Part shown: positions 13,246-27,395 of the stretch, piece after piece
Layout of the letters: each line of letters opens with the position of its first letter
How positions within the stretch are numbered: the first letter of the stretch is position 1
IMG/VR virus record: IMGVR_UViG_3300034175_000027
Strand: one strand, 5' to 3'
Length of the DNA stretch: 46,458 nucleotides
From: a virus
The notes under the pieces: generated by a model
The model's database searches: none
The model's input: only the letters and a program-made list of their open reading frames with translations
Told to the model about the DNA's origin: nothing
Translations under genes and position numbers: made by a program

Positions 13246-13289
13246 AGAATAGTATTTACCTATGTAAACAACCAATTAATTCTAGCTAT
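13246..13289 (-). promoter_or_regulatory. Conserved promoter/operator cassette A
   Basis: Minus strand reads ATAGCTAGAATTAATTGG (AT-rich upstream part), TTGGTT (13270-13275), an 18-nt spacer holding the palindrome-like ATTTAC-CTAT-GTAAAC (13254-13269), and TATTCT (13246-13251). Two more copies exist at 18288-18331 and 27352-27395. Confidence 0.55.
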
Positions 13290-13304
13290 ACAGATCGAGC
13301 ACGC

Positions 13305-13330
13305 AATAAAAACCCGCTATTACAGCGGGC
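13305..13330 (-). terminator. Rho-independent terminator overlapping the primase stop codon
   Basis: Minus strand reads CCCGCT-gtaat-AGCGGG followed by TTTTTAT. Confidence 0.65.
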
Positions 13331-15584
13331 CACCATGCTGAGGTACATCGTAATATTTGCCGTCACGCGCCTTTTTAGGCTCCCCGCCTGTTAGTTTGCG
13401 CAGTATCTTGGCAACCTCGGTGGTGTGTTTCCTGTCGAGCTTGTTGTTCATGCCGATATCAATCAGCACGTCAGTGGCATTCATAGGCTTGCATGCCGCC
13501 GCACCCACCTGCCCCCACGGGTAACGCTTCAAAATCAATTCCTCGATCGGGTCGACTGCCTCATGCTCACGGTTTAGCAGCTCGAGACTAGCTTCCTCGT
13601 GGCGCTCTAACCACCAATGCTCACCAGCCCTGAATAGCGTTGCCACCTCAGCCCACAGCTGCTGCACGTCGATTTTATGCAGGTAGTCAACACCGATAAC
13701 AGGGATAGTCCACCAGCGCACGTTGCCAGTGTCATCAGACAGGAAATTGCGAGGGTTTACGCTTGCAAAAAACACCGTGCGGCGCTGGTATCGTGACTCG
13801 AGCCGATCGTATGGCTTTCGCAGCATATCCACCTTGCTGCTGACAAACGCTTTGAGCTTGGCCATATCCGCTTTGCGAAATGTGCCATCTAACTCGCCTA
13901 GCTCCACAATCCAGTGGCTGATGGCTGAGCTGATGGTGTCTTTGTTTGACGGGTCGATACTGGCGCCCTCTTTGACCAGCTCTTGCCGATCGTAAGGCAG
14001 CAGTGATTTGATCCAGGCAGATTTGCCGAGTGACTGCTCACCTTGCAGCACCAACACACCCTTTGACCAAAAACCACTGGGGGTGAGCGCTGCAGCTACT
14101 GCCGATATCAGCCAGCGGCGCACCAGCAGCTCGAGCAACCCGCGATTAAACCCGCGCTCAGTCTGCAGGGTGTCGTACAGAGCTGACAGCCGGCTGTAGC
14201 CATCCCACGGGCGCGAGGTGATGAATTCGGCAACCGGGTTGAATTGGTTTTTGTTGGCGATGTATTTGAGGTAGTCAGGGGTATCGGCCTTGGGCATGCG
14301 GTTACGAGCACACAGGCTGTTGATTTCAGCCAGCGCACAGGCTGCAGCTGAGTCATCGCCATAATGCTGGCCAGGCACATCGATGATCACGTCTTTGGAT
14401 ATGACATTGTAGCGAACGCCTATGCCGTATTGATCCAGCATCCATTTCAGGTTTTCGTGCGTGTTGAGCGGCTGCATTTTGTCGCTCAGGTGCGGGAATT
14501 CAAACGGGCCAACGTTGCTGGATAGATCGAGGTGGTTATCGTTATCCGCTGATGGTATCGCCGCCTGCAGCTGCGTGCGCACCGCCTCGATGCCCTCGAG
14601 CTGGTGCAGGTCGTTGAAATCGGTTGGCTTGGTTTCGAGGTTGACGAATTTCGGCACCACCATGATGGCGCCTGCTGAGCTGGCAGCCTGGCGTGCGTAA
14701 TTTACCCCGTCATTGCCGTGGTTTTTGTGGTAGCGGTCATCATCAGCGGCAACGAGGATAGTGGCAGCGCCAAACGATTGACGCAGATCACGCGCGACTG
14801 TCGGAATATTGCCAGCGTCGAATGCTACAGCCACGTACCAGCCGGTTGCCTGATGGATCGTGGCGCCGGTTGAGTACCCTTCACATATGACGATGCGCGG
14901 CATGTTGCCTGATGGCTTGCCGCCAATCATGTGGAAGCCGCCACGTTTCTGGCCACCCGGCATGTAATCGCGATCGCGCCCTAGCTCGGGTGCATCGTTG
15001 GTGAAATACGCCTGCAGGCTCATCAAATGGCCATCGATATTGCGGATAGGCACCAGCAACGCCTCAGCGCCAGTGCGCCACTTGCCCACCTTGAGGCCAT
15101 ACGCCTGCACGCCTTTGCGTTTCAGGTAAGGGTGATCATCACCGCCAACGTCATTGGCCGCGAGCCATAGGTCTGTAGCTTTGGCTGCTGCCTCGGCACG
15201 TTTGCGGGTGCGCTCTGCCTCTGCCTCAGCTTCCTCGGCTTTGCGCTTGGCAATCCGCTCATCAATCTGCTGCTGCGTCAGCGGCTCGGCTTTATTCGGG
15301 TCACGGTTCCAGCCGCAGCGTTTGGCCTCACCAATGAGTGTGCCGATCGTGATTTTACCGCCAGCCCTGGCTGACTTCCACGTATCGCGAGCGTCTTTGA
15401 AATTGTATTTGTCGCTGGTTTTCGACCAGTTGTCCCATACAGAGAAACCAGCCTCTCCAAGCTCTGACTTAACGGCGCACGCCATCTGAAACCAGGTGTC
15501 GCGGTCGCAGCCTGAGTCACAGTGTCTTAGCGCCTCAGCGATTTCGTCAGTGGTTAGGTCTTGGTATGAACTCAGTGCGCTCAT
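13320..15584 (-). CDS. Primase/helicase-like replication protein (PriCT-2-like N-terminus, Toprim domain, VirE/P4-alpha-like NTPase)
   Basis: ..CDRDTWFQMACAVKSELG..FSVWDNWS.. is PriCT-2-like. ..IVICEGYSTGATI..ILVAADDD.. is Toprim. The Walker A motif GEQSLGKS lies in a VirE-like C-terminal half. Confidence 0.8.
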   Translation of the reverse strand: MSALSSYQDLTTDEIAEALRHCDSGCDRDTWFQMACAVKSELGEAGFSVWDNWSKTSDKYNFKDARDTWKSARAGGKITIGTLIGEAKRCGWNRDPNKAEPLTQQQIDERIAKRKAEEAEAEAERTRKRAEAAAKATDLWLAANDVGGDDHPYLKRKGVQAYGLKVGKWRTGAEALLVPIRNIDGHLMSLQAYFTNDAPELGRDRDYMPGGQKRGGFHMIGGKPSGNMPRIVICEGYSTGATIHQATGWYVAVAFDAGNIPTVARDLRQSFGAATILVAADDDRYHKNHGNDGVNYARQAASSAGAIMVVPKFVNLETKPTDFNDLHQLEGIEAVRTQLQAAIPSADNDNHLDLSSNVGPFEFPHLSDKMQPLNTHENLKWMLDQYGIGVRYNVISKDVIIDVPGQHYGDDSAAACALAEINSLCARNRMPKADTPDYLKYIANKNQFNPVAEFITSRPWDGYSRLSALYDTLQTERGFNRGLLELLVRRWLISAVAAALTPSGFWSKGVLVLQGEQSLGKSAWIKSLLPYDRQELVKEGASIDPSNKDTISSAISHWIVELGELDGTFRKADMAKLKAFVSSKVDMLRKPYDRLESRYQRRTVFFASVNPRNFLSDDTGNVRWWTIPVIGVDYLHKIDVQQLWAEVATLFRAGEHWWLERHEEASLELLNREHEAVDPIEELILKRYPWGQVGAAACKPMNATDVLIDIGMNNKLDRKHTTEVAKILRKLTGGEPKKARDGKYYDVPQHGGPL

Positions 15585-15898
15585 TCTTGCACCGCCAACG
15601 CGTGCAATGCACGATCAGGTGACTCACCAACGAGTTTCCATGCGGTACTGAATGCAGCGCACTGGCTTGGGGTAGGGTAGGCGTACCAATGTACGGTAAG
15701 TGTGCCACGGGTATCGGTGGCAGATTTGATCAGGCGTGTTGCCTGTTCCTCTGACAGCCCCATCATCTCGCGGGCAACTAGCATGACTTTGGTAAGGCGT
15801 TCGATGCGGTGTTTCTGGCCGTTATCGGCAATGAGGTCGATCATAGTAGAGTCATCCAAGGGTGCTAACTGAGTAGTTTCGTGTCGCACCATCAACAC
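15581..15898 (-). CDS. Hypothetical protein
   Basis: 105-aa ORF with a 4-nt overlap with the primase start. Confidence 0.5.
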   Translation of the reverse strand: MLMVRHETTQLAPLDDSTMIDLIADNGQKHRIERLTKVMLVAREMMGLSEEQATRLIKSATDTRGTLTVHWYAYPTPSQCAAFSTAWKLVGESPDRALHALAVQE

Positions 15899-15909
15899 GG
15901 GTCGTTATT

Positions 15910-16203
15910 CTAGCGTGAAGTGTCGCGCGAATACCATAGCTCGCGCACCTTATCTTCGAGTTTTTGCGCTGATTGCTTGCCGCGGCGTCCTGCTACACCA
16001 CCAGACATAACGCCTTTATCGTTTGGCTCACCCCAGATAAAGCGCCGCCTGGCACCTCTATCTGGCAGTTTGATCACCCAACGCGCCTCACATTCTGCTC
16101 TGAATTCTTCGCTGTCGCTGGTCACCTCGGTGCCATCGTGCAGTTTCACGATGTTTGGCACCCAGGTGCTAACGTTGACGCTTGGCGGCTTGATGTGCCT
16201 CAC
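15910..16203 (-). CDS. Hypothetical protein (start uncertain)
   Basis: The listed ORF reaches 16290 but would then overlap the upstream HTH gene by 90 nt. An in-frame GTG at 16203 overlaps that gene's stop (GTGA), so the shorter form is favoured. Confidence 0.4.
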   Translation of the reverse strand: MRHIKPPSVNVSTWVPNIVKLHDGTEVTSDSEEFRAECEARWVIKLPDRGARRRFIWGEPNDKGVMSGGVAGRRGKQSAQKLEDKVRELWYSRDTSR

Positions 16204-26838: not shown

Positions 26839-26864
26839 ACATCACCCCATTGCGAAATAAGGTG

Positions 26865-26907
26865 AGTGTGGCGGCGCGAGAACGGGGTTTCCTCTTGTGG
26901 CTTTTCA
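26865..26907 (-). promoter_or_regulatory. Predicted late promoter P-late4
   Basis: Minus-strand box TGAAAAGCCACAAGAGG (26891-26907, 16/17), with CACACT 20 nt downstream (26865-26870). It lies immediately after a terminator. Confidence 0.45.
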
Positions 26908-26917
26908 GGATTGCATT

Positions 26918-26940
26918 AAAAAACCCGCCGAAGCGGGTGC
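26918..26940 (-). terminator. Rho-independent terminator (TTCG tetraloop)
   Basis: Minus strand reads ACCCGC-TTCG-GCGGGT followed by TTTTTTAAT. Confidence 0.75.
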
Positions 26941-27345
26941 AGGAATCAACAACGAGCTAAACACTCAAAGGGCACGGAAACAACCAAGCATTAAGTGAGT
27001 GATAGTTAACCTCTGAGTGCCTAGCTCGTTGCCCACTCGTTACTGCCACCCGAGAGGGTTGGTGTGTTGTGGCTGGAATCGAACCTGCCGCCATACAGCT
27101 TAGACTTATAGGGCTTATCCCCTTGCTCATACTGCCCTAACCACCAGGTCAGGATCACAACCTAAAACACTCTGCCTCTGGTTATCCGCTCATTTGGTCG
27201 CGACCACTACAGTTGTAACGCAGAATGCTTTAGGCTGCCCACTCTTACGAATGGGCTGGCCGTCTTTCCGGCTGTCATCTGGCTTGCTTGCGCATTCAGT
27301 ATAACCAGCAAATCATCACTCTTTGTGCCTTGCGGCGAATTCAAT
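26941..27345 (-). ncRNA. Candidate structured non-coding RNA (~410-430 nt), bounded by a promoter and a terminator
   Basis: There is no ORF of 60 aa or more on either strand between 26839 and 27391. Promoter cassette C lies upstream and a strong terminator downstream. A 21-bp helix (26951-26971 with 27010-27030) has 18 Watson-Crick and 3 G:U pairs only when read as a minus-strand transcript. There are additional hairpins and a tRNA-like domain. Confidence 0.45.
27060..27162 (-). other. tRNA-like domain (D-arm-like, T-arm, acceptor-like stem, CCA), non-canonical. It could instead be an attP core.
   Basis: The minus strand reads GGTTGTG-AT-CCTGACC-TGGTGGTTA-GGGCAG..(40 nt)..GCAGG-TTCGATT-CCAGC-CACAACAC-A-CCA. 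The T-loop is canonical and the D-loop has GG. The acceptor pairs at 6 of 7-8 bp, the T-stem has one A:A mismatch, and there is no recognisable anticodon arm. Confidence 0.35.
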
Positions 27346-27351
27346 AAGGCT

Positions 27352-27395
27352 AGATTACAGTTTACTTACGCAAACAGCCAATAAATTTTAGCTAT
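27352..27395 (-). promoter_or_regulatory. Conserved promoter/operator cassette C
   Basis: Minus strand reads ATAGCTAAAATTTATTGG, TTGGCT (27376-27381), an 18-nt spacer holding GTTTAC-TTAC-GCAAAC (27360-27375), and TAATCT (27352-27357). It overlaps the int stop codon and points into the ORF-free region. Confidence 0.5.

Follow-up and report, generated by a model that had tools for sequence, protein, structure and literature searches.

Small phage helix-turn-helix (HTH) proteins that bind as dimers to 14-17 base pair (bp) dyads placed over core promoter elements are familiar from the lambdoid Cro/CI systems of lambda, P22 and 434, in which one type of operator serves several promoters, the regulator controls its own promoter, and operator and recognition helix diverge together, as immunity specificity does. 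The P22 repressor Arc, at Pant, and similar repressors act sterically from an operator centred between the -35 and -10 elements, and in the RK2 kor regulon (KorA/KorB) one small autoregulated repressor is matched by identical operators in the promoters of several operons. At MerR-type promoters an over-long spacer is occupied by a dyad with its centre near -22, and in both the mycobacteriophage stoperators and the MotA-box middle promoters of T4 a conserved phage motif heads several transcription units. Here we describe a cassette of ~44 bp that shares something with each of these systems and is present three times in IMG/VR virus record IMGVR_UViG_3300034175_000027, a stretch of 46,458 nucleotides (nt) that we refer to as the window. 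The explanation that we favour, with moderate confidence, is that the cassette is a sigma-70-type promoter-operator module placed at operon junctions of the replication arm, and that a phage-encoded HTH protein of 64 amino acids (aa) is the probable repressor of four promoters, its own among them.

The resemblances are partial. Unlike the tandem cooperative triplets of the lambdoid phages, the sites here are single, they lie at junctions between operons within the replication arm and not in a divergent early control region, and the protein is encoded away from the immunity locus and matches no Pfam Cro/CI family at threshold; the cassette also carries an extra invariant upstream box that sets it apart from classical phage arrangements. 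Arc is a ribbon-helix-helix protein that acts at one promoter, whereas the candidate here is an HTH protein and the promoters number four, and the kor regulon belongs to a plasmid, its proteins being unrelated and its operators placed differently. The spacer of the cassette is 18 nt, rarely 19, as against 19-20 nt at MerR-type promoters, and there is no coiled-coil MerR protein. Stoperators are asymmetric and occur 20-30 times per genome, in contrast to the symmetric dyad and the three or four sites seen here, and MotA boxes replace the -35 element and need AsiA, whereas the cassette has a normal -35. The logic is that of a classical phage gene switch, of a solid but ordinary kind that is not yet described for this group of phages.

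All three cassettes face the minus strand and follow a large gene. Cassette A (13246..13289) lies 31 nt past the stop codon of the primase gene, whose product has PriCT-2, Toprim and VapE-like domains; cassette B (18288..18331) lies 6 nt past the stop of the helicase gene (ResIII/Helicase_C); and the stop codon of int, the tyrosine integrase gene, falls inside the ATAG box of cassette C (27352..27395). In cassette A the ATAG box (13286-13289) is followed by the -35 hexamer TTGGTT (13270-13275), the dyad GTTTACATAGGTAAAT (13254-13269) and the -10 hexamer TATTCT (13246-13251), with a predicted start at ~13239. The corresponding parts of cassette B are TTGGAA (18312-18317), a dyad with perfect arms (18296-18311) and TAAGCT (18288-18293), with a predicted start at ~18281, and those of cassette C are TTGGCT (27376-27381), the dyad GTTTGCGTAAGTAAAC (27360-27375) and TAATCT (27352-27357), with a predicted start at ~27345. 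Cassette A is predicted to drive the accessory genes from 13197 downwards, and an intrinsic terminator (13311..13331, minus strand) separates it from the primase stop; downstream of cassette B are a 200-nt leader and then pentapeptide-repeat and VRR-NUC-like genes.

The preliminary description of this DNA had placed three copies of ~44 bp at these positions, all on the minus strand and just past the primase, helicase and int stop codons, each with a TTGGnn hexamer, an 18-nt spacer and a -10 of TATTCT, TAAGCT or TAATCT, and a check of the sequence bears this out. Its account of the palindrome holds for copies B (perfect) and A (one mismatch) and has to be amended for copy C, to which it had given two mismatches: the arms GTTTAC/GTAAAC are perfect over 6 nt in B, with a single arm mismatch in each of the other two copies, and the earlier count for C is reached solely if the central 4 nt, which are non-palindromic, are counted against copy B. 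When the 36-nt pattern ATAGCTAAAATTAATTGGNNGTTTACATAAGTAAAC, which extends from ATAG through the whole dyad, was searched with up to three mismatches, it gave exactly three matches in the window and none in 100 dinucleotide-preserving shuffles of it, so the three repeats are not a product of chance. Their consensus reads ATAGCTA.AATT.ATTGG, two variable nt, GTTT.C, 4 nt, GTAAA, 3 nt and TA..CT. Similarity among the three copies begins at ATAG and stops at the predicted start, ~7 nt past the -10, with unrelated flanks on either side, and the copies differ mainly at hexamer positions 5-6, at the ends of the spacer and in the interior of the -10.

By its int region and primase protein, the window is an Iiscvirinae-like small myophage. 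A megablast search of positions 13000-20500 against phages gave no match, and the relatives were reached by blastn of the int region and by tblastn. They comprise the Pseudomonas phages PPpW-3 (Hiroshimavirus) and Persinger (Harrisonburgvirus), the enterobacterial Jilinviruses Arya, ep3, ECO1230-10, ECOO78 and HeidiAbel, Klebsiella phage KA2-1 (a record that is unclassified and groups with the Jilinviruses in the present comparison), and Serratia phage MQ-4, the Xanthomonas FoX phages, Achromobacter phage Mano, Burkholderia phage Mica and Ralstonia phage phiRSP. Gene order is constant across the group, and because its primase is only 59-65% identical, or less, to those of all these relatives, the window represents a new lineage. 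Members of the group are described in the literature as poorly characterised, with an 'enigmatic' lifestyle, and we found no description of a repeated cassette there.

The preliminary description had called for a search of related phages, and the cassette was recovered at syntenic positions in ~15 related genomes, at the junctions after the helicase and after the primase genes and always on the coding strand; it is thus a property of the group and not of this genome. Persinger and PPpW-3 surfaced directly in a scan of viral contigs with the core pattern, and the post-helicase and post-primase gaps of the relatives were then read. Both positions are occupied in PPpW-3, Persinger, KA2-1, Arya, HeidiAbel, ep3, ECO1230-10 and MQ-4; Mica and Mano have three copies each, and FoX3 and phiRSP carry recognisable variants. 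The general layout is ATAG, 10 nt of any sequence, TTGGnn, a spacer of 18-19 nt with a TTTAC-N4-GTAAA dyad, TAnnnT, and a CA at the start. ATAG, followed by an A-rich stretch, is kept in 21/21 aligned copies, 34-35 nt upstream of the -10, and TTGG is usual at the -35; by inspection, every one of the 21 copies has a -10 hexamer with A as its second and T as its sixth base. The cassettes of Mano are without an ATAG box.

The spacing between hexamers is fixed at 18-19 nt while the dyad moves within this frame, by ~1 nt in the Jilinviruses and by ~4 nt in Mica. Both hexamers and the distance between them are preserved from genus to genus while the dyad shifts; the cassette thus behaves as a sigma-70-type promoter that has a separate protein site inside it, a pattern from which we infer promoter activity. 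A reading of TTGG in terms of sigma-54 or another alternative sigma factor was rejected by eye, as the spacing is wrong. An intrinsic terminator equivalent to that of the window, CCCGCTTCGGCGGGTTTT, lies between the primase gene and the post-primase cassette of the relatives, and because this conserved terminator precedes them the post-primase cassettes would restart transcription. In the strain variants L052 (~1983-2034) and L073 (~3780-3831), which come from related samples, cassette A (window 13239-13289) is kept up to the predicted start and is followed by entirely different genes; as both diverge right after that point, cassette A marks a mosaic junction. In PPpW-3 (L049), the annotated start of an 'HNH endonuclease' coding sequence, at 36481, falls within the post-primase cassette and is probably mis-called.

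Two readings in which the inverted repeat is not a protein site, namely that it folds into a hairpin, in RNA or in single-stranded DNA, that serves for example as an attenuator, processing site or hairpin promoter, or that the whole cassette is a small mobile repeat, are hardly credible in the light of these comparisons. The arms can pair, with predicted free energies of -4.2 to -6.9 kcal/mol, and G-U pairing could accommodate the mismatches of copies A and C; but over 32 sites 27/192 arm positions are unable to pair, including a recurrent internal A-G (GGAAA arm), the stems are short and A/U-rich with no T run after them, and the half-site sequence itself is conserved beyond the ability to pair. 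A generic mobile repeat would be scattered over random positions, whereas the copies are syntenic at operon junctions, are fixed in orientation on the coding strand, and lose their similarity at the predicted start.

Three sites had been listed before, but the regulon as we see it has four, the overlooked member being the promoter of the operon that encodes the small HTH protein (16630..16660, minus strand). Its dyad was found by a relaxed dyad search, and the promoter itself, TTTACT, 18 nt and TATAAT, which agrees with the consensus at 10/12 positions, was called by a consensus promoter scan. The dyad GTTTACTATAATCAAC (GTTTAC-TATA-ATCAAC, 16645-16660, minus strand) covers the -35 of the promoter at 16630-16659, which has a predicted start at ~16623 and is predicted to drive a DUF7220 gene and then the gene of the 64-aa XRE/Cro-like HTH protein (16200..16394, minus strand; phrog_14341), the proposed binder of the dyad and autoregulator. 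The small-HTH gene is immediately preceded by a homologous dyad promoter in every relative examined (PPpW-3, Persinger, KA2-1, Arya, HeidiAbel, ECO1230-10, FoX3, Mica, L062-L065 and MQ-4), where the dyad is followed after ~10 nt by (TG)TACAAT or a similar -10. By tblastn the small HTH was found in 11/11 genomes, and its size is 62-64 aa throughout.

The half-site of the dyad differs between phages, and the change is in every case symmetrical and common to all the sites of a genome. TTTAC/GTAAA occurs in the window, PPpW-3, Persinger, L062/L063 and MQ-4 together with the recognition helix QTVRIW, and in KA2-1 and the Jilinviruses except Arya together with QTVLIW. Arya has TTTAA/TTAAA at all three of its sites and the helix STVRVW; Mica, L064, L065, FoX3 and phiRSP have TTCAC/GTGAA and QTVRVW; and Mano has an ACGTAT core and TTISMW. 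The small HTH proteins of Arya and KA2-1 are 51.6% identical, the lowest value among the 12 proteins compared, the others being at 61-90%. Because the half-site changes symmetrically, phage by phage, the dyad behaves as the operator of a phage-encoded dimeric protein, and the earlier proposal that it serves one dimeric DNA-binding protein thus gains comparative support.

That a host transcription factor recognises the dyad is accordingly very unlikely. TTTAC/GTAAA is common to several phages of different hosts, as a host factor might explain, yet close enterobacterial phages differ, with TTTAA in Arya and TTTAC in KA2-1 and HeidiAbel, and all three Arya sites have changed together. The hosts, moreover, span gamma- and beta-proteobacteria, and a search of 185,579 species genomes with the 23-nt core pattern gave merely 42 scattered single matches in unrelated phyla, which we treat as chance.

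Two candidate binders had been put forward, the 64-aa HTH protein and a winged-HTH protein (19947..20348, plus strand) encoded divergently from the helicase gene, and the comparisons favour the former: it was detected in every genome searched, its own promoter carries the dyad, its helix differs with the half-site, and it is the most diverged of the proteins compared between Arya and KA2-1. These observations are supportive and fall short of proof. The alternative that the winged-HTH protein, or a CI-like protein at the equivalent position, binds the dyad and so places the cassettes in a lysogeny or immunity circuit has the attraction of a DNA-binding protein at the classic repressor position, with homologues by tblastn in PPpW-3, Persinger, Mano and Mica, and in these only. 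We give it very little chance, as tblastn found no homologue in KA2-1, ep3, ECO1230-10, Arya, HeidiAbel or FoX3, all six of which retain cassette and dyad alike; at that position Arya and HeidiAbel encode an unrelated protein that is annotated as a CI-like repressor, and KA2-1, ep3 and ECO1230-10 have neither. There is also no dyad-like site in the intergenic region between the winged-HTH and helicase genes. A search for a ParB-like binder among the scanned early-region open reading frames (ORFs) of the window gave no ParB-family match.

With the small HTH protein as the candidate, we infer the following scheme, in which the binder, its binding, the sign of its effect and the 'early' timing of the units concerned are all predictions. 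The 64-aa protein would bind, as a dimer, to the dyad operators in the four promoters. Its gene lies in the arm that cassette B would serve and has, in addition, its own predicted strong promoter at 16630-16660, and as the protein accumulated it would most likely repress all four promoters. It would thereby hold its own operon in negative feedback and shut off the units that follow the helicase and primase genes; in the phage of the window alone, shut-off would extend to the inserted module of RNA and orphan genes behind copy C. Copy C has every element of the cassette, which makes co-regulation of its unit with the other three promoters a plausible and reasonable expectation. In the cassettes the dyad spans about -30 to -15, so that a bound dimer would exclude RNA polymerase; the A-tract after the ATAG box, at about -50, resembles an UP element, and the start would lie ~7 nt past the -10. 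Repression is favoured because the dyad covers the -35 of the near-consensus promoter of the HTH operon, which is a repressor geometry, and spans -30 to -15 in the cassettes.

The opposite sign has to be weighed, namely that the protein bound at the dyad activates weak cassette promoters, through a MerR-like reshaping of the spacer or some other recruitment of RNA polymerase. In that case a phage factor would turn the cassettes on as 'middle' promoters, and repression by the small HTH would be confined to its own promoter. We regard this as unlikely, while acknowledging what speaks for it: the cassette hexamers of the window are weak, the spacer of 18-19 nt is suboptimal, the centre of the dyad, at about -22.5, is where MerR-type activators sit, and the invariant ATAG at -50 could be a second, activator site. 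But the small HTH is an XRE/Cro-like domain of 62-64 aa with no MerR coiled coil, and the dyad over the -35 of the HTH promoter has the geometry of a repressor site. Jilinvirus cassettes, furthermore, have good hexamers (for example, TTGGCA-18-TAATAT). The group also has an HTH_17 protein of ~70-95 aa, annotated as MerR-like or excisionase-like (22658-22945 in the window), but its DNA-reading segment is invariant in 9/9 aligned genomes, Arya and FoX3 included, while the dyad varies, and it is also present in Mano, whose cassettes are without ATAG. The cassettes of the window do not have the features of a MerR-type promoter, their spacer being 18 nt and no MerR-family protein with a coiled-coil dimerisation helix being present. 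We also considered whether the HTH_17 protein reads the ATAG box, and this is not supported, as Mano has the protein and not the box.

Several observations weigh against repression by the small HTH protein at sigma-70-type promoters, the reading that we prefer. The hexamers of the cassettes in the window match the consensus at 7/12 positions over an 18-nt spacer, and the consensus promoter scanner made no call at them; given such weak hexamers, the cassettes may depend on an activator. The helix and the half-site vary together over four half-site classes, most strikingly in Arya, but the independent lineages behind this pattern are few and phylogeny is a confounder. PQTV/AQTV is common to FoX3, Mica and proteins of the TTTAC class, so specificity must involve other residues as well. 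For the 64-aa protein, a profile search of the PDB gave XRE-like matches only, none of them significant, and an AlphaFold model of the protein alone had a predicted local distance difference test (pLDDT) score of 55.6, too poor for use; a word-based protein search returned the query itself only. The literature on the phage group yielded no transcription start or binding data. Finally, the model offers no explanation for the invariant ATAG box, which may be part of an UP-like element or a site for a second factor.

Copy C belongs to an insert, 24076-27395, that consists of the cassette, an ORF-free stretch and three genes; KA2-1, PPpW-3, Persinger and HeidiAbel have no post-int copy, and in them int abuts the converging operon. 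The ORF-free unit (26915..27345, minus strand), in which the contig annotation calls no gene, is predicted to give a structured RNA of ~430 nt that ends at an intrinsic terminator with its stem at 26923-26938. Its predicted fold has a minimum free energy of -174.8 kcal/mol, with z = -6.7 relative to shuffled controls. Rfam gave no match at the gathering threshold; the only sub-threshold match in the locus, a weak one to tRNA-Sec (27066-27161, 21 bits, E = 0.14), includes a GGTTCGATTCC T-loop, and ARAGORN detected neither a tRNA nor a tmRNA there under its intron, tmRNA and relaxed settings. No homologue of the RNA was found by blastn against phages or by a pattern scan of viral sequences, and eight metagenome matches were unrelated chance matches. 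The ~430-nt RNA may be a free non-coding RNA or a terminator-containing leader of the three genes. The terminator hairpin CCCGCTTCGGCGGG with its T run at 26923-26938 has a nearly identical counterpart at the end of the primase gene in Arya, KA2-1, HeidiAbel and Persinger.

Downstream of the RNA, three orphan genes (24076..26838, minus strand) encode Ser/Thr/Gly/Ala-rich proteins of 379, 440 and 99 aa, none of which has a match in Pfam, PADLOC or PHROG. The 440-aa protein has no relative among 5.8 billion proteins, and a word-based search with it gave the query only. For the 379-aa protein there are 32 distant relatives, some of them fused to fibronectin type III or cadherin-like domains, and these fusions suggest a surface or virion protein. 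In the neighbouring int gene, the ~160 nt at the 3' end (27424-27583) have a DNA identity of 72-82% to Persinger, HeidiAbel, PT1, MQ-4, PPpW-3 and others, with far less identity over the rest of the gene, and this block could be an embedded DNA site such as attP; in relatives, a tRNA-Arg gene adjoins int.

Some relatives have a different non-coding element behind the cassette. In Arya, HeidiAbel, KA2-1 and MQ-4, an element of ~160 nt, 95% identical among them, starts at the predicted start of the cassette (L053 37388-37548; L054 36773-36932; L050 33559-33719; L090 5217-5377), after the primase gene in Arya and HeidiAbel and after the helicase gene in KA2-1 and MQ-4. One hairpin is swapped in HeidiAbel with its pairing kept, 10/43 pairs being changed on both sides. 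The element has no match in Rfam, and a covariance model of it found no copy in the window or in other relatives.

A few further features of the window and its relatives are recorded here. A dyad-like site, GTTTACCTGGATAAAA, lies on the minus strand at 13113-13128, ~140 bp downstream of the operator of cassette A and inside the first downstream gene, and could be an auxiliary operator or a chance occurrence; two more dyad sites with two mismatches, at 13755 and 34135, both fall within genes. The 200-nt leader after cassette B contains an unlisted 34-codon ORF, MKTFAQYQQLQKQRQDEMREIRRAAFKLMMAARK (18136-18240, minus strand). In Mica (L059), the large intergenic region at 13100-13330, upstream of a gene for a Mor-like late activator, is full of repeated TGTCACC motifs, and its equivalent in the window is a gap of ~500 bp (9409-9907).

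A wider interpretation, to which we attach little probability, would make the cassette a portable control module with two reading heads, the ATAG box for a conserved factor and the variable dyad for the small HTH, that wires acquired cargo into the temporal programme of the phage. Such a module would have captured the ~430-nt RNA here and the ~160-nt covarying leader in Arya, HeidiAbel, KA2-1 and MQ-4, and these RNAs could be new regulatory classes tied to the replication regulon.

Returning to the promoter-operator module that we favour, its consequences are of several kinds. Knowledge of the cassette would correct annotations, such as the start of the PPpW-3 'HNH endonuclease', and accounts for the sites at which mosaic cargo is swapped. 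The matched pairs of operator and repressor (TTTAC, TTTAA and TTCAC) could act as small orthogonal switches, and for the orphan structured RNA behind copy C the cassette would indicate co-expression with replication genes. The Iiscvirinae and their kin (Jilinvirus, Hiroshimavirus, Harrisonburgvirus, Foxunavirus, Micavirus and others) are candidates for therapy and biocontrol, and a four-site regulon with an identifiable candidate regulator would provide a first testable map of the control of replication and accessory genes in this group.

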